From a virus, in IMG/VR virus record IMGVR_UViG_3300029305_004519, positions 77,541 to 135,466 of that record: 57,926 nucleotides of DNA; one strand, written 5' to 3'. Below are positions 255 through 10,547 of this stretch, one piece after another. How positions within the stretch are numbered: the first letter of the stretch is position 1; every line of letters starts with the position of its first letter. A program made the position numbers and the translations under genes. Under the pieces are notes generated by a model. The model saw only the letters and a list, made by a program, of their open reading frames with translations. It was not told where the DNA came from and searched no databases.

Positions 255-283
255 ATTATACCACACTTTTATGGATTTGTCAA
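255..283 (-). promoter_or_regulatory. Sigma-70-type promoter (minus strand TTGACA-17-TATAAT)
   Basis: Plus tgtcaa at 278-283 and attata at 255-260 with a 17-bp spacer. It lies upstream of the nucleotidase gene. Confidence 0.7.
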
Positions 284-286
284 GGG

Positions 287-308
287 GTTTTTGAAAAGTT
301 TTTCAAAA
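287..308. promoter_or_regulatory. Perfect AT-rich palindrome TTTTTGAAAAGTTTTTCAAAAA abutting the -35; possible operator
   Basis: Arms of 9-10 bp are self-complementary around a central G. A related GGTTTTCAAAAA sequence sits upstream of the 2432-2460 promoter. Confidence 0.35.
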
Positions 309-375
309 ATTTTTTCGAGTTGCGGTGGTCGGTCATCTTGTTAGCCGTTAACCTTTCGCCCTTGACTACATCAAT

Positions 376-404
376 ATTATATCACAAATCGCACGATTTG
401 TCAA
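376..404 (-). promoter_or_regulatory. Sigma-70-type promoter with an 8-2-8 palindrome (ACAAATCG-CA-CGATTTGT) in its spacer; candidate operator
   Basis: Plus tgtcaa at 399-404 and attata at 376-381 with a 17-bp spacer. The palindrome spans 384-401. This promoter sits ~90 bp upstream of the next promoter with no ORF over 20 codons between them. Confidence 0.6.
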
Positions 405-478
405 GCACTTTTGGGAATTTTCTTTTCGTCAAGTTGCACAAACATTTGGCGAAAAAATATGTGGAATCGTGCAATTTG

Positions 479-545
479 CACAAAAACGGCGCGCGAGGGT
501 CCTTGGCGCGCCGGCAAAAAGAAAAGGGGTGAATTACTCCACCCC
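479..545 (-). terminator. Two tandem rho-independent terminators for the operon ending at 534
   Basis: Hairpin GGGGTG-loop-CACCCC at 526-545 spans the stop codon and is followed on the minus strand by a U-run. A GC hairpin GGCGCGC-loop-GCGCGCC at 488-512 is also followed by a U-run. Confidence 0.6.
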
Positions 546-761
546 ATAGAATTTATTATAGCTTGGATGAGCTTCAATTTTTTCTGCAAGTTTATCTTGC
601 TTAATCATAGCTCTCTGCATGATTTTCTCTTGAATACTTACTGAAAAGCGAGATACCCAACAACCAAAATCGCTGATTTTTTCAAAAACTCGCGCTGACA
701 ACGGGTTCTCTAAATGGTCGTATTTTTTTTCCAATCTTTTAAATGCCTTATCTTTGTTCAT
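534..761 (-). CDS. Hypothetical small protein (75 aa)
   Basis: Part of ORF 534..776. The internal Met MNKDK is preceded by a G-rich Shine-Dalgarno. Its ATG overlaps the TGA of the upstream gene (ATGA). Confidence 0.5.
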   Translation of the reverse strand: MNKDKAFKRLEKKYDHLENPLSARVFEKISDFGCWVSRFSVSIQEKIMQRAMIKQDKLAEKIEAHPSYNKFYGVE

Positions 762-877
762 ACCAAATCCCCCCAAAATGTAATATCATCGTAATCATTT
801 AAAGTAGGCTCATCACTGCACAATTGCCCAACGATAATTAGAGCAAAGAGTATAGAGAAAAAGATTACTGCTTTCAT
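758..877 (-). CDS. Hypothetical 39-aa peptide with a hydrophobic N-terminus (MKAVIFFSILFALIIVGQLC...), signal-peptide-like
   Basis: Its start and stop are both ATGA-overlapped with the flanking genes. It is below the ORF-track size cutoff. Confidence 0.3.
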   Translation of the reverse strand: MKAVIFFSILFALIIVGQLCSDEPTLNDYDDITFWGDLV

Positions 878-1041
878 ATCTCCACCTCTTTAATAATTAT
901 CATTTTTCGTACTTGGAAATATAATTTCCAACCCAGCAATTGTCGCAAATGTCTGCGCACTCTTTTTTCATTCCAAGTGCAGAACGCTCCTTTCATGAAG
1001 CCGTTGTCTATGGAATATTCAAACTGTTTAATCTGTTTCAT
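874..1041 (-). CDS. Hypothetical small protein (55 aa)
   Basis: Part of ORF 874..1056. Start MKQIK is preceded by TGGGGGTTAAAG, a G-run. Confidence 0.45.
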   Translation of the reverse strand: MKQIKQFEYSIDNGFMKGAFCTWNEKRVRRHLRQLLGWKLYFQVRKMIIIKEVEI

Positions 1042-1049
1042 ATCTTTAA

Positions 1050-1080
1050 CCCCCAATTATCATTTGAAATAAGTTCCACA
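1050..1080. repeat. Copy A of a 31-bp direct repeat (minus sense TGTGGAACTTATTTCAAATGATAATTGGGGG)
   Basis: It duplicates 1494-1524 except for one base. Here it encodes only an 11-aa remnant ORF MWNLFQMIIGG, which is the C-terminus of the 1489-1743 protein. Confidence 0.6.
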
Positions 1081-1083
1081 TAG

Positions 1084-1179
1084 TCATTCCGATTCAATGA
1101 GCCACTTGACGGCTTCTTTGATAGAAGTTGCCGCGCCAATCGTGCCGTGGTTTTCTTCATTGATTTGAATGATTGTCAT
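1084..1179 (-). CDS. Hypothetical 31-aa ORF (MTIIQINEENHGTIGAATSIKEAVKWLIESE)
   Basis: Its ATG is ATGA-overlapped with the stop of the 1176-1484 gene. Short and speculative. Confidence 0.2.
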   Translation of the reverse strand: MTIIQINEENHGTIGAATSIKEAVKWLIESE

Positions 1180-1484
1180 TCTTCGGTCTCCTTTTCTTCT
1201 TTGTATTTTATTGTACCTTTTTCGATACAAGTTTGTATGTTTCGAGCCAAGAAATTTTCATTGAACACTCCCGTCATAAAAACCAATCCGCAAAAAATAT
1301 TATACAGAGGAATGGCGCATTGTAAAAATAGCTTAAACCATTGAAACAGGCGCTCACCGAAAGAACGACGAATAGCGGAAATAAGGTTGTGTCTTTTGGC
1401 ATAAAAGCGAACTTCAATAGTCATCAGAAGAACGCTTGCAAGGGCAAACAGAATTGTGCATACATAAATGTTTAAGATAATCAT
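1176..1484 (-). CDS. Small membrane protein (102 aa, multiple hydrophobic helices)
   Basis: Part of ORF 1176..1499. Start MIILNIYV follows a GGAGGA Shine-Dalgarno that lies within repeat copy B. Confidence 0.55.
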   Translation of the reverse strand: MIILNIYVCTILFALASVLLMTIEVRFYAKRHNLISAIRRSFGERLFQWFKLFLQCAIPLYNIFCGLVFMTGVFNENFLARNIQTCIEKGTIKYKEEKETEE

Positions 1485-1488
1485 TTTT

Positions 1489-1743
1489 TTATCCTCCAAT
1501 TATCATTTGAAATAAGTTCCACATGTTCATCACCCAAAGGGCGATATTAAGAACCACAAGATTGATTTTGTGCGCTTCCCAACAGAAAGTGGATGCGATG
1601 CTTGCGCCAATGCACCATAGAATCGTCATATTGGCGCCCATCATGCCGCCTATGACGCATATCGTGTAGATTAAGGCGGTGAGGTCGGTGGCGTCAAACT
1701 CATAGGGGCGGTCAAGGTTGAAATAGTTAGCGATTTTCTTCAT
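1489..1743 (-). CDS. Small membrane protein (84 aa)
   Basis: ORF track entry. Hydrophobic throughout. Overlaps the upstream gene by 17 nt. Confidence 0.55.
   Translation of the reverse strand: MKKIANYFNLDRPYEFDATDLTALIYTICVIGGMMGANMTILWCIGASIASTFCWEAHKINLVVLNIALWVMNMWNLFQMIIGG
1494..1524. repeat. Copy B of the 31-bp direct repeat
   Basis: It encodes the C-terminal 11 aa and stop of the 1489-1743 gene and contains the GGAGGA Shine-Dalgarno of the next gene. Confidence 0.6.
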
Positions 1744-1915
1744 ATTTTACTGCTCCATTCGGATAAGTTACAATGCGGTTTTGTTCTTTGAGTATGCGTT
1801 CTATCCTACAACCGCAACCGCATTCCCAAACCTCTGTTGAATGAGAGGTGGTAAAATGGTCAATCCATAACAATTTGGCTTGTGCGGTGCTACCGCAATT
1901 TGGACATTTAATCAT
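1727..1915 (-). CDS. Zinc-ribbon protein (62 aa; CPNCG...CGCGC)
   Basis: ORF track entry. AAGAGG Shine-Dalgarno. ATGA overlap with the upstream gene. Confidence 0.55.
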   Translation of the reverse strand: MIKCPNCGSTAQAKLLWIDHFTTSHSTEVWECGCGCRIERILKEQNRIVTYPNGAVKYEENR

Positions 1916-2073
1916 TTTACTTTTACCTCTTTGAGTTTATAAACTTGTACTTTTTCCCAATAGCGTTGATAATAATGAACGCAATTTTTCATTGTCTCTT
2001 TGGGGCAATCAATAACAATATTGCGACTGACAGAGCCGTCGATATTGCTGACGATTAAAAGCCATTTAATCAT
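1912..2073 (-). CDS. Hypothetical 53-aa protein (MIKWLLIVSNIDGS...)
   Basis: GGAGGA Shine-Dalgarno. ATGA overlaps at both ends. Below the ORF-track cutoff. Confidence 0.4.
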   Translation of the reverse strand: MIKWLLIVSNIDGSVSRNIVIDCPKETMKNCVHYYQRYWEKVQVYKLKEVKVK

Positions 2074-2327
2074 TTTCTTTTATCCTCCCTATATCCAAAA
2101 TATCTGCGACCTTGGTAGTATTCGATATTGATATGCCCCATTCGTGCAAGATTGCGAAGTGCATTTTCCATGGCACTAATAGTGACATATCCCTCTCCAT
2201 CTTCATCGTGAGGAACGCGAGCATAGATTTCCTCTTTATGAAGATAGTATTCCTTGTTTTCTGCGAGAATGTTCTCTACCCAATAAAACGCATCTCTCGG
2301 TCTTTCAAGATATTCTTTTCTAATCAT
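2070..2327 (-). CDS. Hypothetical protein (85 aa; MIRKEYLERPRD...)
   Basis: Part of ORF 2070..2378, using the internal Met with a GAGAGG Shine-Dalgarno. The longer ORF would overlap the tRNA-like element. Confidence 0.5.
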   Translation of the reverse strand: MIRKEYLERPRDAFYWVENILAENKEYYLHKEEIYARVPHDEDGEGYVTISAMENALRNLARMGHINIEYYQGRRYFGYREDKRK

Positions 2328-2350
2328 GGTTATTACCTCTCTTTTTTTAG

Positions 2351-2418
2351 TGGGCGTGAGGGGAATCGAACCCCTCATTTAACTTTCACTCATAGCAGAG
2401 TGTTTTTCCTGCTCGCCC
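2351..2418 (-). tRNA. tRNA-like element, possibly a tRNA gene; the cloverleaf could not be completed by eye
   Basis: The minus-strand RNA has a canonical T-arm AGGGG-UUCGAUU-CCCCU and a 7-bp acceptor stem GGGCGAG/CACGCCC with one mismatch, plus discriminator A. It is 68 nt long. A CUA triplet is present centrally, but no canonical anticodon stem could be found. It lies immediately downstream of a consensus promoter as the first element of an operon. Confidence 0.45.
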
Positions 2419-2431
2419 TTACTGCTCTTAT

Positions 2432-2460
2432 ATTATACCACATTATGTAGGTTTTGTCAA
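2432..2460 (-). promoter_or_regulatory. Consensus sigma-70-type promoter (TTGACA-17-TATAAT) driving the tRNA-like element and downstream small genes
   Basis: Plus tgtcaa at 2455-2460 and attata at 2432-2437 with an exact 17-bp spacer. Confidence 0.75.
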
Positions 2461-2607
2461 GAGGTTTTCAAAAAATATTTGCAACTATTTTTCGACAAGT
2501 GGCTTCCGTCGTCCCCTACTCGTTGTTTCTGTTCTCAACTCGCGCGTGTAGTTTCTGTTCCAAACTTTCGTCTGTGCCGTTCACACTTGGTTCCTCTTAA
2601 CATTATT
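2461..2607 (-). ncRNA. Candidate small noncoding transcript between tandem promoters
   Basis: About 145 nt lie between two consensus promoters with no ORF or Shine-Dalgarno. It contains an internal direct repeat GAACAGAAAC that occurs twice. Confidence 0.2.
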
Positions 2608-2636
2608 ATTATACCATACAATCGGGAAAATGTCAA
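2608..2636 (-). promoter_or_regulatory. Consensus sigma-70-type promoter (upstream member of a tandem pair)
   Basis: Plus tgtcaa at 2631-2636 and attata at 2608-2613 with a 17-bp spacer. The TTGCACAAA upstream element is at about 2647-2655. Confidence 0.7.
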
Positions 2637-2697
2637 GTGGTAATTTTGCACAAACTTTCAGCGGAAAAATGGCGAGAAGTGTACAGAATGCACAAAT

Positions 2698-2774
2698 CGG
2701 AACGCGGCGGCCGGCCTCGTTCCGCCGGAGTTTTGGGTAAAAAAGAAAAACCCCAGAACTTACGAAAAGCTCTG
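2698..2774 (-). terminator. Tandem hairpins terminating the 2840-3142 transcript
   Basis: Hairpin CCAGAGC-loop-GTTCTGG at about 2752-2774 is followed on the minus strand by UUUUUCUUUUUU. A GC-rich hairpin GGAACG-loop-CGTTCC sits at 2699-2724. Confidence 0.5.
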
Positions 2775-2839
2775 GAAATTTGCTGAGAGGTCTAAGTCGC
2801 GGAAAATCGGACTAGGCGCGAACGCTTTCGTCCGTCAGC

Positions 2840-3142
2840 TTAATGGCTGAAGTGTTTCAACACGTCTTGCGCATCGTACTCATTTTCGTTCTCACTCATA
2901 ATTATAATTTTATTTTCCCATTCAGCAGGAATGCTTAAAATTTTAAGTGTTTCCTTTAAGAATGAAATCATATCCGAACAATCATTTTTTTGATTGTCAG
3001 AAAGAAAGAGAAGGGCGCCCAACTCTTCACAGTAAAGCGCGTGAAGGGGATAGTCTTGCGCCGAGAGGGTTTCCCAATCAAGGGGAGTGAGTGAAGATTC
3101 AAAATGAGTGATTACAAGAGCGTGGCTGAAGTGGTACTTCAT
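2840..3142 (-). CDS. Hypothetical protein (100 aa)
   Basis: ORF track entry. GGAGG Shine-Dalgarno. Its own promoter lies upstream. Confidence 0.55.
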   Translation of the reverse strand: MKYHFSHALVITHFESSLTPLDWETLSAQDYPLHALYCEELGALLFLSDNQKNDCSDMISFLKETLKILSIPAEWENKIIIMSENENEYDAQDVLKHFSH

Positions 3143-3188
3143 ACCGCGTGACCTCCTTGTATCTCTTATTTATTTTTCTTACATATAT

Positions 3189-3217
3189 ATTATATAATAA
3201 ATTTTTTAAAAAGTCAA
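3189..3217 (-). promoter_or_regulatory. Sigma-70-type promoter (TTGACT-17-TATAAT)
   Basis: Plus agtcaa at 3212-3217 and attata at 3189-3194. Confidence 0.65.
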
Positions 3218-3220
3218 AAG

Positions 3221-3240
3221 GCGCAGATTATGCTGCGCCC
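3221..3240 (-). terminator. Rho-independent terminator after the 3244-3447 gene
   Basis: Hairpin GGCGCAG-cataat-CTGCGCC is followed by UUUU on the minus strand. Confidence 0.5.
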
Positions 3241-3243
3241 CGA

Positions 3244-3447
3244 TTATTCATTCCATCGGCAACAGTTGGGGCAATAGTATTGCGTTCCATAACGACCACC
3301 ATTTGGAATTACTTTTTCTTCGCATACTTGACAGTATCCATTATTGAAGCGCTTTTCTGTCAAATGCTCTCCAAGTAAATAGGCGCCATACCAAGATATA
3401 ACTCCTATCACAAGGATTATAACAAGAATAATCCAAGAATGTTTCAT
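3244..3447 (-). CDS. Membrane-anchored zinc-ribbon protein (67 aa; one TM helix, then CQVC...CPNCC)
   Basis: Part of ORF 3244..3531, using the internal Met MKHSWIIL with an AAAGGAAAG Shine-Dalgarno. Confidence 0.5.
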   Translation of the reverse strand: MKHSWIILVIILVIGVISWYGAYLLGEHLTEKRFNNGYCQVCEEKVIPNGGRYGTQYYCPNCCRWNE

Positions 3448-3508
3448 TTTCTTTCCTTTCTGCGCATTTCCAAATTTTTCCAGTGCGCTCTTTTTATGTA
3501 GAGGGAGA

Positions 3509-3928
3509 TTACTCTCCCTCGTCCTCGTCAATCATGCGATCCTCACATTCTTCATTGTCGCATTCATCGCAATTGAAGTCGCACTCATCATCGAGTTCAT
3601 CCTCATCATCATCGAGGAAATAGTTGGGAATGTCGGGGAACTCGCCCGCTTTGTTGGCACGGACATTGTGAACCTTGACCTTATTCGTAAGGTCAGATTT
3701 GGCAAGAGGTTCAAACACATCGATCTTGCGACGGAGAACCGAACCATCGTTGCGGAATACCGATACCTGATAGCCACCCCTGACTTTCAACACATAGGGA
3801 GAAGAAAGTCGGTCTTTTTCGCAGGTATTGAAGCGGATATTTGCATACGCATCTTGCACTGCGGTTTTGAGGTCTGCATAGTCAACTCCCGTACAGATAA
3901 GGCGGTAAACATAGTTTTTCTTTTTCAT
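3509..3928 (-). CDS. Hypothetical protein (139 aa) with an extremely acidic C-terminal tail (DDDEDELDDECDFNCDECDNEECEDRMIDEDEGE)
   Basis: ORF track entry. GAGAGGA Shine-Dalgarno. Candidate DNA-mimic or anti-restriction protein by composition. Confidence 0.6.
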   Translation of the reverse strand: MKKKNYVYRLICTGVDYADLKTAVQDAYANIRFNTCEKDRLSSPYVLKVRGGYQVSVFRNDGSVLRRKIDVFEPLAKSDLTNKVKVHNVRANKAGEFPDIPNYFLDDDEDELDDECDFNCDECDNEECEDRMIDEDEGE

Positions 3929-3964
3929 AATAAAAATCCTCTCTTTTCTTTTGATTACATATAT

Positions 3965-3993
3965 ATTATATCATAAGATATGTACTTTGTCAA
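3965..3993 (-). promoter_or_regulatory. Consensus promoter with a duplicated -35 (TTGACTATTGACA)
   Basis: Plus tgtcaa at 3988-3993 and attata at 3965-3970 with a 17-bp spacer. Confidence 0.7.
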
Positions 3994-4553
3994 TAGTCAA
4001 GTTGCACAAACTTTTGATTATTTATTTGTGCAACTTGACGATGGCGCTTGGCTATTTTGTTAATATAATGCTCTGCATAGTACTTTGCGGCTTGCGCAAT
4101 GTCATTGCAGTTTGCTGATAGTTTTGCTTTACGTATAAGTTCCTCAAACTCATGTTCGGCGCGCCATTCTTGTGCGATAATGTTCTGCTCTTGGGTTACC
4201 TGCTCCCATTTGAGAATCTCAATATCAAATCCATGGTCATTGAAATTATCGACTTTATCTTCAAGGCGGAAGCAATATTGTACCTCTTTGGACATAAGAT
4301 ATGCCCATCCAACAGTGATAGGAATCCATATTAAATCCAACCAAGTGACCGATATTGAGAGGGAAAGTATAAGTCCAACCCCATAAATTACTATCATTGC
4401 TACGAAAAGCCAGCAACTCAAATAATATTTGATACTCATGTTTAATTCTTTTTCTGTCATGGGGCGCTCATGAGTGATTTCTTTATAGTCAAACTCATTG
4501 GTTTTGGTATTGAATGTTGGGTAGTACATTGTGCGCTTTACTGTTTTAGCCAT
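3990..4553 (-). CDS. Membrane protein (187 aa; two central TM helices, C-terminal coiled-coil-like region)
   Basis: ORF track entry. GAGAGGAATA Shine-Dalgarno. Confidence 0.6.
   Translation of the reverse strand: MAKTVKRTMYYPTFNTKTNEFDYKEITHERPMTEKELNMSIKYYLSCWLFVAMIVIYGVGLILSLSISVTWLDLIWIPITVGWAYLMSKEVQYCFRLEDKVDNFNDHGFDIEILKWEQVTQEQNIIAQEWRAEHEFEELIRKAKLSANCNDIAQAAKYYAEHYINKIAKRHRQVAQINNQKFVQLDY
3996..4039. repeat. Perfect 15-bp inverted repeat GTCAAGTTGCACAAA / TTTGTGCAACTTGAC separated by 14 bp
   Basis: Its arms contain the conserved promoter-upstream element TTTGTGCAA in both orientations. It lies inside the 3' end of the 3990-4553 CDS. Confidence 0.5.
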
Positions 4554-4584
4554 TGTATATTCCTCTCTTTTCTTTGGTATCTAT

Positions 4585-4613
4585 ATTATATCATATTTAT
4601 CGGGAAAAGTCAA
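4585..4613 (-). promoter_or_regulatory. Sigma-70-type promoter (TTGACT-17-TATAAT)
   Basis: Plus agtcaa at 4608-4613 and attata at 4585-4590. It shares an extended ~45-bp homology with the 8578-8606 promoter (gtcaatgaataaaYtgtaa). Confidence 0.7.
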
Positions 4614-4668
4614 TGAATAAACTGTAAACTAAATGTAAACAAAAAATGAATGAGAGGTAGGGCTTGCG

Positions 4669-4702
4669 CATAAATCGGCTCGACGCGCCCCACGTCGAGC
4701 CG
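4669..4702 (-). terminator. Rho-independent terminator
   Basis: A 10-bp GC stem CGGCTCGACG-loop-CGTCGAGCCG is followed by AUUUAUG on the minus strand. Confidence 0.6.
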
Positions 4703-4726
4703 CTGAAAAATTGAAGGGCGAGTTTT

Positions 4727-5216
4727 CACTCACCCTTGATAGGTCTGCCGAGAATATCGTGATAATCGTAGTAGCGATACATCGACCACACTTTTTCATC
4801 TTTGACTTTGGAACCATCATACACTACAAGAGTGCCAAGGAAGATGCCACCCAGCCGCTCAATCTCTTCTTTGACAACTGCCACGGTTTTACCGCTGAAA
4901 TAGCTATCATCAATGAAAAGAAATTCGCGCCCTTGATGCGATTTTGGAATGGTTCAAGATTGATTTTAGATGGGTCATGGCGAAAACCACCCGGAACGAG
5001 CAGGTCAATTTCAATACCAAGGTTATGCATAGACAACCCAATCTCACCGCTTGCAATGGTTAGCGCATTATATGCAAGTATATGCGATTTTGCAATGAGG
5101 TCTTGCAGAATTTCATAATCAAACTTGACCGCTTTATCAAGTTCCGAAAAGAAGATTTGACCACCGATGAATTTTTCTAAAAGTTCATTTACAGTTTCAA
5201 AAATTTTATTTTTCAT
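4727..5216 (-). pseudogene. Phosphoribosyltransferase-domain gene disrupted by a -1 frameshift (or a sequencing error) near 4925-4935
   Basis: Frame A (ORF 4824..5216) encodes the N-terminal part. The -1 frame continues with a PRPP-binding motif FLFIDDSYFSGKTVAVVKEEIERLGG...PIKGE and stops at about 4727. The join lies within aatttcttttcattg. Confidence 0.5.
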
Positions 5217-5220
5217 TTCG

Positions 5221-5559
5221 TTATACCCCCAAACTGATTGCTATTGCTTTATCAACTTCCCACATTTGTTTACTATTTGCGATGCCGACAAAGGTTTTTA
5301 GTCTGCGCTTGTCAAGGGTTCGCATTTGCTCACATTCGACCATGCTCTCCTTGCATAAACCGCAAGAGGTATCGAGTAATACCTGTGTTGGCAGACGGAA
5401 TTTATGCGTGCGACTGGTGATGGCCGCCGCAATGACGATAGGCGCGCGTCTGTTGCCTATATCATTAGATACAATCAACACTGGGCGCAAACCGCCTTGC
5501 TCACTGCCGACTACTGGTGAAAGGTCTGCGTAATAAATTTGTCCTCTTTTGATTTCCAT
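5221..5559 (-). CDS. mazF: MazF/PemK/EndoA-family toxin endoribonuclease (112 aa)
   Basis: RGQIYYADLSPVVGSEQGGLRPVLIVSNDIGNRRAPIVIAAAITS...ECEQMRTLDKRRL closely parallels Bacillus EndoA/NdoA and E. coli MazF motifs. AAGGGGG Shine-Dalgarno. Confidence 0.85.
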   Translation of the reverse strand: MEIKRGQIYYADLSPVVGSEQGGLRPVLIVSNDIGNRRAPIVIAAAITSRTHKFRLPTQVLLDTSCGLCKESMVECEQMRTLDKRRLKTFVGIANSKQMWEVDKAIAISLGV

Positions 5560-5572
5560 ATGTACCCCCTTG

Positions 5573-5594
5573 GGTAGAGCCTTACGGCTCTACC
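5573..5594 (-). other. Perfect 9-bp intercistronic hairpin (GGTAGAGCC-ttac-GGCTCTACC) with the upstream gene's stop codon in its loop
   Basis: It lies between the 69-aa gene and the mazF ribosome-binding site. No U-run follows, so it is probably not a terminator. Confidence 0.5.
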
Positions 5595-5791
5595 TCTATA
5601 ACCTCAATGCTTTGTTTTACTACGAACTCCCCGCAAATTTCGCCCGTAAAATTGTTGACGATAATAACATTGGTTTCTTTGTTGATTGCCATGCCATTAG
5701 CAAAATACTTTGCATGGTTAAGGTCATCAAAATCCGCAATGTGCTTGCATTCGCAATACACTCCATAGTCGAGAATGTCAAATCTAATCAT
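5582..5791 (-). CDS. Hypothetical 69-aa protein upstream of mazF (candidate non-canonical antitoxin)
   Basis: ORF track entry. AAAGGAAAGG Shine-Dalgarno. It has no recognisable MazE/AbrB or RHH signature. Confidence 0.5.
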   Translation of the reverse strand: MIRFDILDYGVYCECKHIADFDDLNHAKYFANGMAINKETNVIIVNNFTGEICGEFVVKQSIEVIEVEP

Positions 5792-5827
5792 AAGTTTATA
5801 CCTTTCCTTTCTTTTGTTTACATATAT

Positions 5828-5856
5828 ATTATATCATATTGATTGCCGTTTGTCAA
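5828..5856 (-). promoter_or_regulatory. Consensus promoter (TTGACA-17-TATAAT) with the upstream TTGACTATTGACA / TTTGTGCAA element
   Basis: Plus tgtcaa at 5851-5856 and attata at 5828-5833. Confidence 0.7.
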
Positions 5857-5888
5857 TAGTCAATTTGCACAAAGTTTTTGGGTGGGAC

Positions 5889-6200
5889 TTATGCACAATA
5901 CACAAGCCCCATATCGCGCCAGCGGAGAACAGAGATTTGATTACAAGCGCGCCCAACTTCAAGGGCTTCATGCTTTGTTGCTACTCTATGCGATAAGTCG
6001 ATATAGTAGATGCCAGCGCTGAACCAAATACCGCAGTTACCGCCATATGCCTTGACCGCGTTAATGGCTTCGCGGGGGTCGGTGGTTTCAATGCCCTCTG
6101 TTGCGACTTGATACCCAGACTTGTAAATGATGCGCTTACCGCCTTTAAGGGTCATTCCGTCATTATCTTTCAGATTGCGAATGGAGCGAATGTTGATCAT
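5889..6200 (-). CDS. Hypothetical protein (103 aa)
   Basis: ORF track entry. AAAGGAAAGG Shine-Dalgarno. Confidence 0.55.
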   Translation of the reverse strand: MINIRSIRNLKDNDGMTLKGGKRIIYKSGYQVATEGIETTDPREAINAVKAYGGNCGIWFSAGIYYIDLSHRVATKHEALEVGRACNQISVLRWRDMGLVYCA

Positions 6201-6233
6201 AATATGTATTTTCCTTTCCTTTATTGTATCTAT

Positions 6234-6262
6234 ATTATATCATAAAAGCGGGAAAATGTCAA
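6234..6262 (-). promoter_or_regulatory. Consensus promoter
   Basis: Plus tgtcaa at 6257-6262 and attata at 6234-6239 with a 17-bp spacer. Confidence 0.7.
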
Positions 6263-6323
6263 TAGTCAAATGTAACAAAGTTTTGGAGAAAAAAAGATGG
6301 TGATTTGTACAGATTGCACAAAA

Positions 6324-6380
6324 CGGCTCGCGGCGGAGGATCGCGAGCCGGGCAAAGAAAAAAGGTGCCTGTTGGCACCT
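6324..6380 (-). terminator. Tandem rho-independent terminators after the 6380-6565 gene
   Basis: Hairpin CGGCTCGCG-loop-CGCGAGCCG is followed by UUUUGUG. Hairpin GGTGCC-aaca-GGCACC is followed by UUUUUUCUUUG on the minus strand. Confidence 0.65.
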
Positions 6381-6565
6381 TAATCAATGATGAGGATATT
6401 CTCTTGCGGGAGCCCGAGGGAGATTGCATACCAAAGGGCATCGTCTACACTCTCGCAATCTTTTAGTTTAATTATTTTGAATTCATTTCTGACACGACAT
6501 TCATAGTTAGTTTTGTCAGTAATGCACCATCCATAGAAAAAATCTTTCCATAAAATATATTGCAT
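6380..6565 (-). CDS. Hypothetical protein (61 aa)
   Basis: ORF track entry. AGGGGGTAG Shine-Dalgarno. Confidence 0.5.
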   Translation of the reverse strand: MQYILWKDFFYGWCITDKTNYECRVRNEFKIIKLKDCESVDDALWYAISLGLPQENILIID

Positions 6566-6579
6566 TTTTCTACCCCCTA

Positions 6580-6816
6580 TCAGTAAGTGTCATAGCCGAG
6601 GCAATCGCCTTCGGCATCGGTAATAAGAGCAACGAAACAAGCGTATTCAAAGTTTTCATCAGCGGTTGCTTGGCAACGAGTGATGAAATCTTCCATTTCT
6701 TCGCCTTCTTCCTTTTTCCATTCTACAAGGAAAATTTCACCGCTTTCCCTGTCATAGAATTTGGCGTCAAGCCATTCGCCAACTTTTGTCTGTTCCCAAA
6801 TCTGTTCGTTTGTCAT
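6580..6816 (-). CDS. Highly acidic small protein (78 aa; 22 D/E residues against 4 K/R)
   Basis: ORF track entry. AGAGAGG Shine-Dalgarno. Candidate DNA mimic by composition only. Confidence 0.55.
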   Translation of the reverse strand: MTNEQIWEQTKVGEWLDAKFYDRESGEIFLVEWKKEEGEEMEDFITRCQATADENFEYACFVALITDAEGDCLGYDTY

Positions 6817-6860
6817 TTGTGTTTACCTCTCTTTTATGTATTTGTCCTTTTGACACTCTT

Positions 6861-6889
6861 ATTATATCATAAATAAATGTATTTGTCAA
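6861..6889 (-). promoter_or_regulatory. Consensus promoter
   Basis: Plus tgtcaa at 6884-6889 and attata at 6861-6866. Confidence 0.7.
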
Positions 6890-6922
6890 GTATTTTTGCA
6901 AAGTTTTTTTGAAATATCGAAC

Positions 6923-7043
6923 AAGTTTACAAAATGTTCATAATTTAACAGCAGGTCTTAAACTACTGCTTTTACGGGTAACAAAATAGAAATGAATGGT
7001 TCATAATTTTGCGTATAAAAGTTTACAAACTGTTCACAAAATG
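6923..7043. repeat. Three iteron/operator-like repeats (GTTTACAAAATGTTCATAATTT, ATGGTTCATAATTTTG, GTTTACAAACTGTTCACAAAATG) upstream of the 6861-6889 promoter
   Basis: Direct reading gives a shared core TTTACAAnnTGTTCAyAA. Related copies lie at 8655-8715 upstream of another promoter. Confidence 0.5.
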
Positions 7044-7045
7044 CA

Positions 7046-7081
7046 AAAAGCGCGCCGCCCCGGGTGTCAGCGGCGCGGCGA
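7046..7081 (-). terminator. GC-rich terminator hairpin after the 7100-7384 gene
   Basis: GCGCGCCGC-loop-GCGGCGCGG is followed by CUUUUUGCAUUUU on the minus strand. Confidence 0.5.
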
Positions 7082-7099
7082 TGGAAAGAGGACTGCTTG

Positions 7100-7384
7100 T
7101 TAGCAGTCCCCTGTGTAGCAACCCATGTAAGGGTCAAAGCCAGTTTCATCGACGTCAGGCTCATAGTCCTCATCTTCCTCGTCCCAATCCTCATTGTAGT
7201 AGAGGCTTTCGGTGCCGTGGTGGTAGATGATTTGCGCCATAGGGGTAGCCTCGTCTTTGGTGAGGTGGTCATCTGCGACAAGGTCAACCAACCGCGCGAT
7301 TGCAATGGTATGGGGGTCTTCAAGCCCGAACTCCGAGCAGGCGAGGTTGTGGCAGTTGATGAGCGAAAGTTTGGTGTAATCCAT
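7100..7384 (-). CDS. Hypothetical protein (94 aa) with an acidic C-terminus; paralog of the 8116-8316 protein
   Basis: ORF track entry. AAAGGAGAA Shine-Dalgarno. Shares the motif ACxxxGLEDxHTIAIA with the 8116-8316 product. Confidence 0.55.
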   Translation of the reverse strand: MDYTKLSLINCHNLACSEFGLEDPHTIAIARLVDLVADDHLTKDEATPMAQIIYHHGTESLYYNEDWDEEDEDYEPDVDETGFDPYMGCYTGDC

Positions 7385-7387
7385 GGT

Positions 7388-7645
7388 AGTTCTCCTTTAT
7401 GTAGATTGAATTGGCTCTGCTCCGTCCATCCGAGGCGGTCGGCTCCTATGAGCGGACTGTGCCATCCTCGGCATCTTTGCCCTACTTGGTTTATATAGCG
7501 ATGGGCGTCTAACACGGTCTTTGCTGACCTCTGACTGCGCTCTGCGGAGAGCGGGCTCTTTACACCGCTTGCAAGGGTACTCGTTTCTTCAAGTTGTGGC
7601 TAAACTCGGTTGGTAGCGCTCCCAACGGCTTTCCCCTTGACACCT
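7388..7645 (-). ncRNA. Long (~250 nt) GC-rich untranslated leader or candidate structured RNA between the promoter and the 7100-7384 gene
   Basis: No ribosome-binding-site-preceded ORF. Several internal complementary segments such as CCGAGG/CCTCGG. The track ORFs here (6958..7515, 7064..7498) lack Shine-Dalgarno sites and look like compositional artefacts. Confidence 0.25.
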
Positions 7646-7647
7646 AT

Positions 7648-7676
7648 ATTATATCACACTTTCGGGCAAAAGTCAA
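7648..7676 (-). promoter_or_regulatory. Sigma-70-type promoter (TTGACT-17-TATAAT)
   Basis: Plus agtcaa at 7671-7676 and attata at 7648-7653. Confidence 0.7.
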
Positions 7677-7736
7677 TAGGTAATATTGCACAAACTTTTG
7701 GCGCCAAATTTGTGCATCTTGCACAAGAAGGCAAAA

Positions 7737-7800
7737 TCGTCGCGCCACGACCGCTGGCGCGACGGCGAAGGGAAAGAGGGCTTTTCAGCCCTCTCTTTGT
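7737..7800 (-). terminator. Tandem terminator hairpins after the 7785-8081 gene
   Basis: AGAGGGC-loop-GCCCTCT at about 7776-7797 and GTCGCGCCA-loop-TGGCGCGAC at about 7741-7767 are followed by GAUUUUGCC. Confidence 0.55.
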
Positions 7801-8081
7801 TTCAATGCGCGATAAGCATCGCGCTCTTCTTTGGTATCAAACCATGTCTTTTCGCCGTACATCCAAATCATATCAACGGAGTCGACACAGTGCACAAGAG
7901 CGAAGCCTTTATGCGCTTGTTGATGTGTGGCTCTAATGGCATATGGGCTACCATTCAAGCGTGCGGTTGAAACGCTCTCTCTGGTAGTTGCAATTTGATA
8001 TTCTTCAATAAAAGCAGGCGTTGCAAGAAAGGGACGTTTTACGCCAAGGACTTTGTAAAGCTCTCTAATAGAATGTTTCAT
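7785..8081 (-). CDS. Hypothetical protein (98 aa)
   Basis: ORF track entry. AGGAGGA Shine-Dalgarno. Confidence 0.55.
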   Translation of the reverse strand: MKHSIRELYKVLGVKRPFLATPAFIEEYQIATTRESVSTARLNGSPYAIRATHQQAHKGFALVHCVDSVDMIWMYGEKTWFDTKEERDAYRALKQREG

Positions 8082-8115
8082 GATATATCCTCCTGTTCGA
8101 TGGGGTAGAGGACTA

Positions 8116-8316
8116 TTAGTCCTCTACCATATGGTATGCGCCGATTGCTTGCATATAGATCGCACGACAGACCATTGCCGCATCCCAACATTTGGCGCCG
8201 CCGGCTTCATGCATTTCTACAATTCCGGCTATTGCAATGGTGTGCTTATCCTCAAGCCCAAGGTCAGTGCAGGCTTTATCCAGCCACTGCCGAGGAGTCA
8301 TGAAATAGTTGCTCAT
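8116..8316 (-). CDS. Hypothetical protein (66 aa); paralog of the 7100-7384 protein
   Basis: ORF track entry. GGAGGTG Shine-Dalgarno. Carries the GLEDKHTIAIA motif. Confidence 0.55.
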   Translation of the reverse strand: MSNYFMTPRQWLDKACTDLGLEDKHTIAIAGIVEMHEAGGAKCWDAAMVCRAIYMQAIGAYHMVED

Positions 8317-8328
8317 ATGCCCACCTCC

Positions 8329-8520
8329 TTATGCGCCGAGGGCTCTAAAACGGAGCCCTTCATATGTGCCGTGATAAAAGCGCCACTTGCCTGCGCCGTA
8401 GCCATAACGAACATTCCAACGCGTATTGCGTGTAACGTGACGGCGGAGCGCATTGCCCGTCATAGAGCCAAGGACTTCGCCTGTCTCAAGATTATAAGCC
8501 CAGTGTTTGCAGTTAGTCAT
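8329..8520 (-). CDS. Basic small protein (63 aa)
   Basis: ORF track entry. GGAGGT Shine-Dalgarno. Confidence 0.5.
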   Translation of the reverse strand: MTNCKHWAYNLETGEVLGSMTGNALRRHVTRNTRWNVRYGYGAGKWRFYHGTYEGLRFRALGA

Positions 8521-8577
8521 AATAGACCTCCAAGTATGTATTCAGAGGGGGAGCGTCCTCCGCCCTTCTGTGTCTAT

Positions 8578-8606
8578 ATTATATCACATAAAGGCGCAAA
8601 AGTCAA
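8578..8606 (-). promoter_or_regulatory. Sigma-70-type promoter (TTGACT-17-TATAAT)
   Basis: Plus agtcaa at 8601-8606 and attata at 8578-8583. Confidence 0.7.
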
Positions 8607-8654
8607 TGAATAAATTGTAACTTATATATGAATATTTTATGAACTTTGCGGGAC

Positions 8655-8715
8655 GGGAAGTGTTCACATTTGGTTCAAACAACTGAAACAAAAAATTTAC
8701 AATTTGTTAACAAAT
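8655..8715. repeat. Operator-like repeats related to the 6923-7043 set (GTGTTCACATTTGGTTCAAACAA, TTTACAATTTGTTAACAAATC)
   Basis: Same TTTACAA..TGTT.A.AA core, found upstream of a different early promoter. Confidence 0.4.
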
Positions 8716-8721
8716 CTTAAA

Positions 8722-8800
8722 AGCGGCGCGTCGCGGGGGATGACGCGCCGGCCGGCACTTCAAGAAGGCGCAACCCTATGACCGGGCGCGCCTTCTTCGC
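8722..8800 (-). terminator. GC-rich terminator hairpin(s) after the 8815-8964 gene
   Basis: GGCGCGTC-loop-GACGCGCC is followed by UUUUAAGAUUU. A second hairpin GAAGGCGC-loop-GCGCCTTC follows. Confidence 0.5.
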
Positions 8801-8814
8801 TGATATGGGATGCC

Positions 8815-8964
8815 TTATACTATACACACATAGGTTCCGGCTCTTGTCCCTTCAGCCTGATACACTTCGGTAATATCAATATTACCGCTATTGCTGTCAA
8901 ATACCCGGATGGGCATATTCTCGTCATATTGGTTAAGCAATTCTTTCAACTCTTTTATAGTCAT
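8815..8964 (-). CDS. Hypothetical 49-aa protein
   Basis: Part of ORF 8815..9006, using the internal Met MTIKEL with a GGAGGGAG Shine-Dalgarno. Confidence 0.4.
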   Translation of the reverse strand: MTIKELKELLNQYDENMPIRVFDSNSGNIDITEVYQAEGTRAGTYVCIV

Positions 8965-8981
8965 GATATAACTCCCTCCTA

Positions 8982-9146
8982 TTAATCGCGGTCTTTCTTC
9001 TTCCAAATCCCTATGAGGATTGAAATCTCATTGCAAATAGTTACAAATACCGCAACCAATGCAATCATAAGTGGGGTAACATTAAACATGCCACTGCTAT
9101 ACATTAAAAGCAGAATAGTCAACCCTATCAAATACATTCTTTCCAT
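8982..9146 (-). CDS. Hypothetical 54-aa membrane peptide (two hydrophobic segments)
   Basis: AAGAGG Shine-Dalgarno. Its start overlaps the upstream stop (TAATG). Below the track cutoff. Confidence 0.35.
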   Translation of the reverse strand: MERMYLIGLTILLLMYSSGMFNVTPLMIALVAVFVTICNEISILIGIWKKKDRD

Positions 9147-9418
9147 TATGCCCAACCTCTTTCTTTCTTAATTTGCTCATATCGAGCTTTATTCTCTGCC
9201 TCAATGCGCGCCTTATCATAGACGCGCGCCTTGATTTGAGTATATCCATATTTACGCATGTCGCGCACTGTCATATGACGTTTTGCTAACATCTTCGTGA
9301 CAGCCTTTTGTTGATATGCGACTTTATTCGCCATATAGTCTACCCATGACGCAACTTCTATCAATTCGGAAAGCGGTCTATAACCGCTTTCCGATATAAT
9401 GGTGACTTGAATCTGCAT
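9146..9418 (-). CDS. Hypothetical protein (90 aa)
   Basis: ORF track 9146..9421 trimmed to its ATG. AGAGGTAAT Shine-Dalgarno. TGATG overlap with the Lar gene. Confidence 0.55.
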   Translation of the reverse strand: MQIQVTIISESGYRPLSELIEVASWVDYMANKVAYQQKAVTKMLAKRHMTVRDMRKYGYTQIKARVYDKARIEAENKARYEQIKKERGWA

Positions 9419-9630
9419 CACATTACCTCTATACTTTCATTGTTCCATGCTTCAATGGCGAGGTCTACGGTATAGCCGGTTTTGCCTGCCGCTTCACAAG
9501 TGGGGCATTGCATAAAATAACCCTCATCCCAACCGGCAAACTCCCGGTTGATTCTATGCAATTGAGTTTTACAGTAGGGGCAGGGGCGGATATAATCCGC
9601 CTGCCCTTTTTCGATTGCTTTAATTTTCAT
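9418..9630 (-). CDS. lar: Lar-family restriction alleviation protein (70 aa zinc ribbon)
   Basis: CPYCKT...CPTCEAAG...AIEAWN matches the Lar family pattern CPxC..C..C with AIEAWN. Confidence 0.7.
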   Translation of the reverse strand: MKIKAIEKGQADYIRPCPYCKTQLHRINREFAGWDEGYFMQCPTCEAAGKTGYTVDLAIEAWNNESIEVM

Positions 9631-9824
9631 TTATTTAATTCTCCTTTCGCTAATGCCAAAGTATAGGCGTGATAATCATCGCAAAATTTTTCAATCGAAA
9701 GAATTTCGCAATCCTGTTCGATAATATGTGCCAATGCGGTATGCATGCCGCCGCCCGATACAGTATAACTATCACATGGAGTGGTAATTCGATAACCTGC
9801 TTTTTCTTCATATCTTGTAAACAT
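9627..9824 (-). CDS. Hypothetical protein (65 aa)
   Basis: ORF track entry. GAAAGGAAGG Shine-Dalgarno. Confidence 0.5.
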   Translation of the reverse strand: MFTRYEEKAGYRITTPCDSYTVSGGGMHTALAHIIEQDCEILSIEKFCDDYHAYTLALAKGELNK

Positions 9825-9846
9825 ATAAATACCTTCCTTTCTATGT

Positions 9847-9867
9847 GGGGTAGGTTTAACCTACCCC
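9847..9867 (-). other. Perfect 10-bp hairpin (GGGGTAGGTT-t-AACCTACCCC) with the stop codon of the 9856-10107 gene in its loop, just upstream of the next ribosome-binding site
   Basis: Same arrangement as the hairpin at 5573-5594. Confidence 0.4.
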
Positions 9868-10107
9868 GTTTATTTTCATGGCGTCAAGCATCTCGCCCGC
9901 GCCCTGTTCGACTTCTTCCGCCAATGCGGTGAAAAAATCATCTTCCGATTCTTCCACCACGGGAGCGGTAACAAGCTCCACATGAGAGCTAACGAAAAAC
10001 AATTCGTTTACCTCTTGAATTGTTTCACCATTTACTAAAATGGTTTTGTGGGGGTCGCATTTTTGCAATTCTTGAATAAGTTGAGAAACAGACATTGACA
10101 TGATTTT
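9856..10107 (-). CDS. Hypothetical acidic protein (83 aa)
   Basis: ORF track 9856..10119 trimmed to Met MSMSVSQ with an AAAGGAA Shine-Dalgarno. Confidence 0.5.
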   Translation of the reverse strand, partial: KIMSMSVSQLIQELQKCDPHKTILVNGETIQEVNELFFVSSHVELVTAPVVEESEDDFFTALAEEVEQGAGEMLDAMKINGVG

Positions 10108-10138
10108 GATTCCTTTCATATGTAAAAAATTTTTTTGA

Positions 10139-10240
10139 TTAATTGAACAGACAACCCAACAGATGAACGACTAAACCGAACAGACAAACACCAATAAATG
10201 CGCCAATAGATAAGAGTACTAAAAGCAATTCAAGTGGCAT
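10139..10240 (-). CDS. Hypothetical 33-aa hydrophobic peptide (MPLELLLVLLSIGAFIGVCLFGLVVHLLGCLFN)
   Basis: GGAAGTG Shine-Dalgarno. It is the first gene after the leftward divergent promoter. Confidence 0.3.
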   Translation of the reverse strand: MPLELLLVLLSIGAFIGVCLFGLVVHLLGCLFN

Positions 10241-10293
10241 TTTTTTCACTTCCTTTCAATTTGATTTTTTGCCGTGTTTACCACCGCAAGACT

Positions 10294-10322
10294 ATTTTAC
10301 CACAAAGCCAAGCATTTGTCAA
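10294..10322 (-). promoter_or_regulatory. Leftward promoter of the divergent control region (TTGACA-17-TAAAAT with an extended TG)
   Basis: Plus tgtcaa at 10317-10322 and atttta at 10294-10299. The TTGCACAAA element is inverted-repeated at about 10336 and about 10373. Confidence 0.6.
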
Positions 10323-10547
10323 CACTTTTTTCATTGTCATTTTGCACAAATTTTTTGGGGGTTTGAGAATTTTTTTTGTGCAAACTACACACAATTATAA
10401 GAGGTATTTTTGGGATTTTGAAATTTCTATTTTCTTCCAAAGCCTTTCCTACGGCAATTCACTCCTAGAAAATTCATTTCATTTCAAAAGACGAACAGGA
10501 TTTTTATAGCTCTCTCTCCAAACCAATAATCCAACGAAAAATTATCA

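Follow-up and report, generated by a model that had tools for sequence, protein, structure and literature searches.

What does a MazF toxin do in a phage genome when the gene next to it encodes no recognisable MazE? The question is raised by a locus in the IMG/VR virus record IMGVR_UViG_3300029305_004519, of which a stretch of 57,926 nucleotides (nt), positions 77,541 to 135,466 of the record, was analysed (hereafter the window; all coordinates refer to it unless a related locus is named). The window is phage DNA, encoding a portal protein and a virion structural protein. On its minus strand it contains mazF (5221..5559), a gene for a 112-amino-acid (aa) endoribonuclease toxin of the EndoA type, and directly before it a gene for a 69-aa acidic protein (5582..5791), here called the partner. 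MazF is usually described as a bacterial stress or defence nuclease held by DNA-binding MazE. Our analysis suggests that the locus of this gut phage works as an RNA switch that limits itself, and not as an ordinary pair of toxin and antitoxin. A phage-borne MazF in itself is ordinary: such proteins are already annotated (PHROG 1936), also without a canonical MazE. New are the partner family and its strict linkage to MazF, together with an RNA layout with a predicted cut site on the start of the toxin gene and in the leaders of early genes. In a full-text literature search, phage MazF came up only as a label in annotations, and neither the partner family nor this layout was described there.

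The toxin and its partner family

The assignment of the toxin to the MazF/EndoA family, made in an earlier reading of the sequence (the original prediction), is secure. The 112-aa open reading frame (ORF) covers the whole PF02452 PemK_toxin profile (model positions 1-109 of 109, E 4.7e-31, 107.7 bits against a cut-off of 23.1) and matches phrog_1936 'MazF-like growth inhibitor' (E 6e-28). It aligns end to end with solved chains of Bacillus EndoA/MazF (7bxy, 4hke, 4me7, 4mdx, 1ne8) and of S. aureus MazF (E 7e-32 to 2e-30 overall, 7e-32 to 8e-31 for the Bacillus chains). In NCBIfam the toxin gets only sub-threshold MazF/ChpB matches. The catalytic residues Arg25 and Thr48 (B. subtilis/B. cereus numbering) are present. 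Both are invariant in eight partner-linked MazF sequences and also in the window MazF and 11 homologs. Mutation of either residue alone severely reduces the ribonuclease activity of MazF and abolishes its toxicity in B. subtilis (PMC7354611). The beta1-beta2 loop SPVVGSEQGG and the motifs NDIGNR and EQ.RT.DK are essentially identical to those of B. subtilis EndoA, and the RNA-contacting loops as a whole hardly differ between the two enzymes. Inactivating substitutions were looked for and none was found. Thus, the profile matches, the alignments with solved chains and the intact Arg25 and Thr48 make the family assignment secure and speak against an inactivated toxin; as judged from the sequence, the active site of the phage MazF is intact.

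MazF without a canonical MazE may be common in phages and prophages. EndoA-type MazF relatives are encoded by 443 IMG/VR viral contigs, and annotated phages with a MazF but no canonical MazE include Psychrobacillus phage Perkons (ORF37) and Clostridium phage NatCom_42228. A crude ORF screen showed no plausible upstream antitoxin ORF in most of the 76 usable IMG/VR loci (L029-L108). One large IMG/VR group of mazF genes shares the leader ...TTCAGGAGGTCATTCTTATG and has no ORF within 150 nt upstream.

The window locus does have an upstream gene, and conservation shows that the 69-aa ORF is a genuine gene: there are 39 homologs with 62-100% identity, 36 of them exactly 69 aa long; all are metagenomic and none is named. 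A profile was also searched exhaustively against 1.84 billion representative proteins, and the family proved tiny, with only 19 clusters at E <=1e-3. No match to the partner was found in Pfam, PHROGs, NCBIfam, PADLOC or a PDB sequence-profile search, nor by tblastn against 50,697 phage records. The original prediction stated that the protein lacks a MazE, AbrB or RHH signature, and this is borne out by both the sequence and the predicted fold. Neither the sequence searches nor the predicted fold revealed similarity to MazE, AbrB or RHH proteins, and an N-terminal DNA-binding dimerisation domain was not seen in them. The partner alignment was also inspected for the C-terminal helix motif of MazE, M-x3-Y-x-E-M (described in PMC10769878), and it was not found.

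The AlphaFold2 model of the partner, built from the 39-sequence alignment, is a compact alpha/beta structure of high confidence (predicted local distance difference test, pLDDT, 89.9). The predicted fold is beta-beta-alpha-beta-beta followed by an extended acidic tail (residues 57-69) with the pattern E-[IV]-[IV]-E-V-E-P, of which the terminal E-V-E-P is invariant. This structure prediction, which had been proposed as a check, shows no MazE-like fold. The net charge of the window protein is -7. Ten partner proteins were compared, of which nine have between -7 and -12 and one (L012) has -2; the net charge of the MazF proteins is +2 to +6.

The linkage between the two genes is strict. In the 69-aa subfamily the partner gene lies directly 5' of the toxin gene in all 15 recovered loci, with a gap of 22-28 nt. 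The toxin gene is called by PF02452 in 14 of these loci; in the last one (L016) it is cut by the contig end and reads as MazF. A scan of JGI metagenomes yielded one partner locus. Three distant members were looked up, and two of them, P0198 (73 aa, ~44% identity) and P0169 (83 aa, ~31-41%), are again encoded directly 5' of mazF, whereas the contig of the third ended too soon to show its neighbour. The neighbourhood of P0198 and P0169 is shared, with a gene of 103-109 aa before the partner. A search of IMG/VR with back-translated, over-strict patterns found no partner; one was recovered later via its MazF (L029, 70 aa, E 4e-24 to the family profile, 5' of MazF). In more than 20 loci there was no partner gene without an adjacent phage mazF. 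The arrangement is that of type II toxin-antitoxin systems: adjacent, co-transcribed genes with the small partner first, conserved as a pair. The 69-aa protein is probably a protein inhibitor of MazF, which it would bind; the opposite net charges of the two are suggestive at most.

Two other candidates for the antitoxin were considered and dropped. One was an AbrB/MazE-domain protein encoded near the modules of relatives; it is absent from the window (tblastn) and inconsistently placed. The relatives have AbrB/SpoVT-domain proteins (PF04014 'MazE_antitoxin') of 142 or 94 aa at 0.4-4 kb from the MazF module (L004 1001-1429, L005 1-378, L013/L014 1-390, L015 985-1269), and these may be transcription regulators perhaps unrelated to the toxin. 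The other candidate was the 130-aa gene downstream of mazF, rejected as the gene at that position differs between relatives: it may be nucleoside deoxyribosyltransferase-like or encode a 57-aa or a 165-168-aa protein.

The mazF junction and the UACAUA sites

The original prediction described a perfect 9-bp hairpin at 5573-5594 (minus strand), with the upstream stop codon in its loop, directly before the ribosome-binding site (RBS) of the toxin gene. This structure was confirmed and turned out to be strongly conserved. It is formed by GGTAGAGCC-GTAA-GGCTCTACC, with a centroid energy of -17.8 kcal/mol. The GUAA loop is a GNRA-type tetraloop and holds the TAA stop of the partner gene (5582-5584), while the 5' arm encodes the invariant C-terminal (E)VEP. 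Reading along the minus strand, the stem is followed by a single C, the Shine-Dalgarno (SD) box AAGGGGG (5565-5571, read from the sequence), UACAU (5560-5564) and the AUG of mazF (5557-5559). The SD box thus starts 2 nt past the stem and is separated from the AUG by 5 nt.

In the 10-sequence alignment of the whole operon the 26-nt run 5573-5598 is the longest invariant stretch, the next one being 9 nt. Codons 66-70 of the partner gene (GAG GTA GAG CCG TAA) have zero synonymous variation among 11 unique orthologous DNA sequences, whereas all ~20 other partner codons for invariant amino acids vary synonymously, the start ATG aside. Constraint on the peptide alone therefore does not explain the frozen codons 66-70. 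More distant members have stems of unrelated sequence at the same position: GAGGGGA-ACTAA-TCCCCTC (L023), ATGGGCGGA-CTAA-TCCGCCCAT (L026), GGCGGA-CTAAAA-TCCGCC (L029) and AGGGCGA-GTAA-TCGCCCT (L056). In all, the wider family contains five different stem sequences, with the stop codon in the loop in each. Hence, it is the structure that is conserved family-wide; within one subfamily the sequence, too, has been frozen.

The hairpin does not look like an intrinsic terminator: it has the stem but no U-tract, its 3' flank is CAAGGGGGUACAU, and it was not terminator-like in the scan. A search of Rfam gave nothing near it. The mean probability that the mazF SD box is unpaired ranges from 0.27 to 0.81 across variants and is 0.81 in the window sequence. 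By this folding model the hairpin does not sequester the SD box, which is predicted to stay accessible. We considered and dropped the idea of a switch based on sequestration of the SD box by the 3' arm, as the pairing is weak (4-6 bp) and not universal, and a terminating ribosome would cover it.

The next element of the layout is UACAUA. The MazF enzymes of B. subtilis, L. monocytogenes and S. aureus are reported to cut a strict 6-mer, U^ACAUA (bioRxiv 10.64898/2026.08.06.743204). The mazF leader in the window reads GGGGG-UACAUA-UG, and the predicted recognition site (5559..5564, minus strand) lies between the SD box and the start, its last A being the A of the AUG. UACAUA is found at the mazF RBS/AUG in nine of the 11 unique subfamily sequences, with spacers of different length, and also in L023, L026, L029 and L056. 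The 76 IMG/VR MazF loci served as a control: UACAUA occurs <=25 nt from the start only in L029 and L056 and in none of the other 74. These two are also the only control loci with the partner/hairpin/UACAUA-AUG architecture.

The same motif marks other genes of the early region. This region comprises the first 10.3 kb (1-10400, minus strand) with ~27 small genes, in the style of an early region and resembling a host-takeover block. On its sense strand UACAUA occurs nine times, seven of them in 5'-untranslated regions (UTRs) beside the SD box or AUG and two in promoter spacers. The 6.7 kb that code for early proteins contain none. Taken together, the 35-nt windows upstream of the 27 early genes contain six UACAUA against 0.38 expected, and none of 20,000 shuffles reached six. 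SD-like and A-rich words aside, it is the commonest 6-mer in these windows. In addition to the mazF site, UACAUA occupies the space between the SD box and AUG of a 103-aa gene (6203..6208) and further early 5'UTR positions at 10119-10124, 8535-8540, 7398-7403, 6835-6840 and 3495-3500, all on the minus strand. Leaders of orthologous early genes keep the motif despite different flanks, and related contigs are alike. Neither the UACAUA on the mazF start nor those in the other early 5'UTRs figure in the original prediction. The predicted target motif is thus concentrated in early initiation regions, that of the nuclease itself included, as is the case for RegB of phage T4. In late genes UACAUA is found five times in sense and 24 times in antisense orientation; after shuffling of synonymous codons (code 15), four were observed against 9.4 +/- 2.9 (p ~0.03). 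We also considered UACAUA as a promoter-proximal element and rejected this, since its distance from the predicted transcription starts varies (~+14 to +31 in the three cases where a promoter is near, and far more in the others) and its relation to the SD box and AUG is fixed.

A lone GC-rich hairpin of this kind in 58 kb would not be remarkable by chance. However, the early region contains 10 perfect GC-rich hairpins of >=8 bp against 0.2 expected (at most two in 100 dinucleotide shuffles). At least seven of these place the stop codon of an early gene in or beside the loop (9867-9847, 8128-8104, 7794-7775, 7109-7090, 5594-5573, 3520-3501, 545-526). The first of these (9847..9867, minus strand), which had been noted in the original prediction as similar to that before mazF, is real: it has the form GGGGTAGGT-TAA-ACCTACCCC, with the stop in the loop and an RBS after it. 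It lies between an 81-aa gene (9856-10101) and a gene starting at 9824, and the orthologs keep the hairpin with other sequences. Many or most of the other stop-in-loop hairpins are followed by U-runs and are terminator-like; relatives show the same style. Orthologous gene-end hairpins persist with a changed stem, as in GGTAGAGGACT/AGTCCTCTACC of the window and ATGGTGGAGG/CCTCCACCAT of L001. As hairpins are kept at stop codons while their sequence changes, they are selected structures. Since there are at least seven of them, with the same in relatives, they represent a genome-wide style of gene ends and not a toxin-specific invention. The pairing of a non-canonical partner with a hairpin, to which the original prediction drew attention, stands in part: both elements are real, but MazF without a canonical MazE may be common in phages and the hairpin is one of at least seven. 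On sequence comparison, what is special about the hairpin at the mazF junction is its nucleotide invariance and its fixed place in the order partner, hairpin, SD, UACAUA-AUG.

In the three intercistronic stop-in-loop hairpins that directly precede an SD box (5573-5594, 8104-8128, 9847-9867), the 5' arm contains GGTAG(A/G)G and the 3' arm C(T/C)CTACC. The likeness could be a coincidence arising from Val-Glu/Val-Gly C-termini, or else the hairpins could have a recognition element in common.

A candidate self-limiting switch and its alternatives

The explanation that we prefer, with confidence about evenly balanced against doubt, is an early operon encoding an acidic inhibitor together with an active MazF, whose targets would be the mRNA of its own operon and those of other early genes. 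What the sequences show are the gene identities, the signals for co-transcription, the strict linkage, the conserved hairpin and the distribution of the motif; the mechanism itself is a proposal. The strong early promoter would transcribe both genes. The 69-aa protein would bind MazF directly and inhibit it, similarly to the T4 protein Dmd and without a DNA-binding domain; with such an inhibitor, control would be post-transcriptional and involve no operator binding. No DNA-binding fold is predicted for the partner, the operon promoter has the full consensus like other early promoters, and no autoregulatory operator is evident. The phage MazF would cut U^ACAUA like the Bacillus, Listeria and Staphylococcus enzymes, a specificity that we infer from the near-identical RNA-contacting loops and the published data, with the placement of the motif in the phage as indirect support. 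Free MazF would cut its own mRNA between the SD box and the AUG; mazF would lose its SD box and toxin synthesis would stop. The same cut would leave the partner cistron capped by the GNRA hairpin, which would block 3'-exonucleases. The resulting negative feedback would favour the inhibitor, and MazF activity would take the form of a self-limiting pulse. Beyond its own leader, MazF would cut at least six further early 5'UTRs and, presumably, those mRNAs of the host that carry the site, leading to early shut-off in the manner of RegB. A MazF cut would turn 5'-triphosphate transcripts into 5'-OH ends open to the exonuclease RNase J1.

A broader proposal, which we make only tentatively, is that the toxin acts as a developmental RNase. 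There would be an early burst of MazF, limited by itself and by a Dmd-like inhibitor and controlled at the RNA level, with UACAUA placed at early RBSs and on the mazF start codon. Early expression and host mRNAs would be shut off, and the late TAG-recoded mRNAs, in which the site is rarer than expected, would largely be spared. If the preferred explanation is true, the partner represents a new fold of MazF inhibitors, the toxin is autoregulated by self-cleavage where operator binding is usual, and the phage provides the second independent case, after T4 RegB, of a phage RNase retiring early mRNAs. The module is ~650 nt long and could be tested in E. coli or B. subtilis without culturing the Clostridia host.

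Several observations weigh against the self-limiting switch. The nearest small solved fold to the partner model is indeed T4 Dmd, but the match is weak, and LepA, ClpS, PsaD and AcrIF9 score alike. Foldseek comparison of the model with PDB gave nothing significant, and that with BFVD gave marginal matches only, to uncharacterised small phage proteins. The resemblance to Dmd, a weak match of a model, is thus a lead rather than established homology. The cleavage specificity is assumed to carry over from enzymes at roughly half identity in the PDB alignments. Two of the 11 subfamily sequences (L016, L017) have a mazF RBS without UACAUA, and mazF of the related phage L010 stands behind its own promoter without a co-transcribed partner. 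In most early UTRs UACAUA is located just 5' of the SD box, and therefore a cut would not remove the latter and would have to act via mRNA stability. The two copies in promoter spacers (3979-3984, 2444-2449) have a conserved position (TTGACAAAnCTACATAATGTGGTATAAT), and these copies could have an additional role at the DNA level. Depletion of UACAUA in late genes is modest after the codon control, and suggestive at that. Genome-wide depletion of the 5-mer UACAU was considered and rejected: by a Markov model there is none (52 observed, 54.6 expected), so only the 6-mer and its placement are informative. The total sequence invariance of the hairpin exceeds what a stabiliser would need, and a sequence-specific ligand may be missing from the scheme. 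Finally, the partner and MazF lineages are shuffled against each other, such that MazF proteins 86-92% identical are paired with partners only 38-44% identical. As far as the sequences go, this would fit either broad compatibility or no physical contact. Since the MazF and partner lineages are shuffled yet always adjacent, the pairing has been kept through recombination, with no co-divergence.

Could the locus be an ordinary toxin-antitoxin pair with a divergent antitoxin, a routine gene-end hairpin and early UACAUA copies unrelated to MazF? The motif could then act in translation or stability, or be recognised by some other factor. We consider this unlikely. Stop-in-loop hairpins end at least seven early genes and many more in relatives, mostly with U-runs, and the double constraint of the EVEP peptide and stem pairing could explain part of the invariance at the mazF junction; the promoter-spacer copies of UACAUA and the late depletion of just p ~0.03 point in the same direction. 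However, the order hairpin/SD/UACAUA-AUG recurs with five different stems in a family diverging to ~31% identity, while the 74 other viral MazF loci have no such motif at the mazF start. Moreover, the motif is exactly the published site of Bacillota MazF, and the double constraint leaves aside the fact that other invariant partner residues (the start Met again excepted) vary synonymously where codons 66-70 do not. A distinctly less probable possibility is counter-defence, with the partner mainly neutralising host MazF and the phage MazF being a captured host gene that, for example, titrates MazE or excludes other phages. Clostridia do have MazF proteins 61-67% identical to that of the phage, phage proteins that bind MazF are known, as is Dmd, which the partner fold resembles, and the promiscuous pairing of partner and MazF lineages suggests recognition of conserved MazF surfaces. 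Nevertheless, a pure anti-host factor would not need linkage, and in more than 20 loci a phage mazF is always adjacent. If host MazF were the relevant nuclease, UACAUA in the early leaders of the phage itself would be a liability; the partner also lacks the M-x3-Y-x-E-M motif of the known MazF-binding phage proteins AimX and YosL.

The coat protein of phage MS2 represses translation at the replicase operator, and the invariant 24-26-nt hairpin could by analogy be bound by the partner, by a MazF-partner complex or by another phage factor, repressing mazF translation; in a DNA version the palindrome could be an operator. We regard this as more doubtful still. In its favour, stem and loop do not vary by a single nucleotide while other synonymous sites change freely, and orthologous hairpins elsewhere drift, with compensation. 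The SD box starts 2 nt past the stem, and a dimer could read a perfect palindrome on DNA. Against these stand the unrelated stems of distant members, due to which any recognition must co-vary with the protein, as well as the strong acidity of the partner, unusual for an RNA- or DNA-binding protein, and the failure to detect a nucleic-acid-binding fold in it. Very improbable is a solitary toxin restrained by RNA structure alone, with an irrelevant upstream ORF, one of the possibilities listed in the original prediction. It draws on the hairpin abutting the SD box and on the ACCC end of the 3' arm, which in most variants can pair weakly with the G-run of the SD box when the 5' arm is unavailable. 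In the predicted ensemble, however, the SD box is for the most part free of pairing, and the alternative pairing is weak; in addition, the strict conservation and linkage of the partner gene argue that the protein matters. This possibility is thus poorly supported, and the self-limiting switch, the points against it notwithstanding, remains the explanation that we prefer.

Operon, genome context and known systems

The early block contains 13 perfect or near-perfect sigma-70-type promoters with an extended -10 box (TTGACA-17-TGnTATAAT), eight of which match the consensus in all 12 of 12 positions (6889, 6262, 5856, 3993, 2636, 2460, 404, 283). One of the eight is the operon promoter (5828..5856, minus strand), with TTGACA, a 17-nt spacer and TG-extended TATAAT. 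It is conserved in all orthologous loci, and the 9-nt invariant run, second-longest in the 10-sequence operon alignment, lies at its -35 box. Between this promoter (5856-5828) and mazF, the promoter scan found no promoter-like site scoring >=10/12. With a single upstream promoter and none before mazF, the transcription unit thus consists of the promoter, the 69-aa gene, the hairpin, mazF, the 130-aa gene and the terminator-like hairpins at 4737-4676.

The 130-aa gene (4824..5216, minus strand), of no known family, starts 4 nt after the mazF stop codon, and its SD box sits within the 3' end of mazF. It ends in TAG (4824-4826). If this TAG is read as sense, as happens in the late genes, the frame runs ~65 codons further in phase to 4629, and the extended frame (4629-5216, minus strand) passes through a segment containing KCGRC. 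Stage-dependent read-through of this TAG is a possibility. The probable end of the operon (4676..4737, minus strand) consists of a terminator-like hairpin at 4714-4737 and a copy of a repeated element at 4676-4702, with a stem of 10 bp and a loop of 7 nt; the next promoter is at 4585-4613. The element has the form CGGCTCGnnG-N7-CnnCGAGCCG followed by (A/T)TTT(A/G)TGC. It occurs in the window at 4676-4702 and 7738-7764, and there are many copies in L001, L004, L005 and L007. It is placed after the first terminator-like hairpin and before the next promoter, and where its copies differ in the stem, the changes compensate each other. A role as a second terminator or as a binding site for a protein is possible.

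The 103-aa gene with the UACAUA leader (5889-6200, minus strand) belongs to no known family and precedes the partner-MazF unit in all related loci. A consensus promoter of its own precedes it, the motif lies between its SD box and AUG, and at its end a hairpin overlaps the stop codon; the stem of this hairpin differs in more distant orthologs. Orthologs are also present in L010/L011, a related lineage (L010 2253-2845, 4116-4681) with a MazF 63% identical to that of the window, its own consensus promoter and UACAUA between SD box and AUG. In L010, a 56-aa protein ending in WWEP is encoded 1.3 kb downstream of mazF and adjoins the 102-aa ortholog; its match to the partner profile is weak (E 0.03).

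The late region (10600-57926, plus strand) is TAG-recoded: frames of >=600 nt cover 25% of it in the standard code (code 11) and 88% with TAG as sense. Late frames reach 8.7 kb, probably including that of the tape-measure protein. No tRNA genes were found within the window. Contigs encoding the same partner protein are 98-135 kb long. Gut siphophages of ~133-136 kb with TAG recoding, probably infecting Clostridia, have been described, phAss-1 among them (PMC10607447), and the TAG-recoded late region of the window resembles phages of this type. Nothing matched when the DNA of the early region was compared with annotated phages at near-identity, and the sole match in a distant search with the late region was a 12-kb unannotated fragment (67.5% identity).

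Among known systems, the window toxin is a member of the annotated phage family PHROG 1936/35650 'MazF-like growth inhibitor'. The closest characterised system is MazE-MazF of B. subtilis (EndoAI-EndoA, ydcDE). The toxins are close (E ~1e-31 to 4me7, 4mdx and 1ne8) with Arg25 and Thr48 intact, and in both systems the upstream gene is small, acidic and co-transcribed. However, the phage partner has neither an RHH/AbrB domain nor a MazE-like C-terminal helix motif, the phage operon is driven by a consensus early promoter of constitutive type with no evident autoregulatory operator, and the phage genes do not overlap, being 22-28 nt apart with a hairpin between them. The Kis-Kid system (parD of plasmid R1), in which Kid belongs to the MazF/PemK family, provides a parallel on the RNA level: translational coupling and mRNA processing to an antitoxin-only species balance the two proteins (PMC3920265). 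It is similar in the post-transcriptional favouring of the antitoxin. It differs in that Kis binds DNA, as canonical antitoxins do, and in that transcription of the operon is autoregulated as well. The features of Kis-Kid reviewed in PMC3920265 include neither a stop-in-loop hairpin nor a cut site on the toxin start.

Non-canonical phage proteins that inactivate an EndoA-type MazF, as proposed here for the partner, have a precedent in AimX and YosL of phi3T/SPbeta, which bind and inactivate B. subtilis MazF and share M-x3-Y-x-E-M with Bacillus MazE (PMC10769878). Unlike the 69-aa family, they mimic the C-terminal helix of MazE, and they act on the host toxin with no neighbouring phage mazF. 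T4 Dmd, the antitoxin of the endoribonucleases RnlA and LsoA, is likewise a small single-domain phage protein that blocks its target directly and has no DNA-binding domain. Its sequence has no detectable similarity to the partner, and the fold match is weak and not unique. Moreover, Dmd is directed at host HEPN toxins and has no adjacent toxin gene, whereas the partner stands beside a phage-borne MazF.

For the proposed function of the nuclease the parallel is T4 RegB, an early sequence-specific phage RNase. Its motif lies in early initiation regions, and cleavage there at the ribosome-binding sites inactivates the early mRNAs (PMC1702504); the predicted motif of the phage MazF has the same placement. 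However, RegB cuts GGAG inside the SD box, whereas most motifs here flank it; RegB also does not have the MazF fold and has no co-encoded upstream inhibitor gene. RegB and PF02452 belong to different fold classes, and the resemblance is functional, with no common membership implied.

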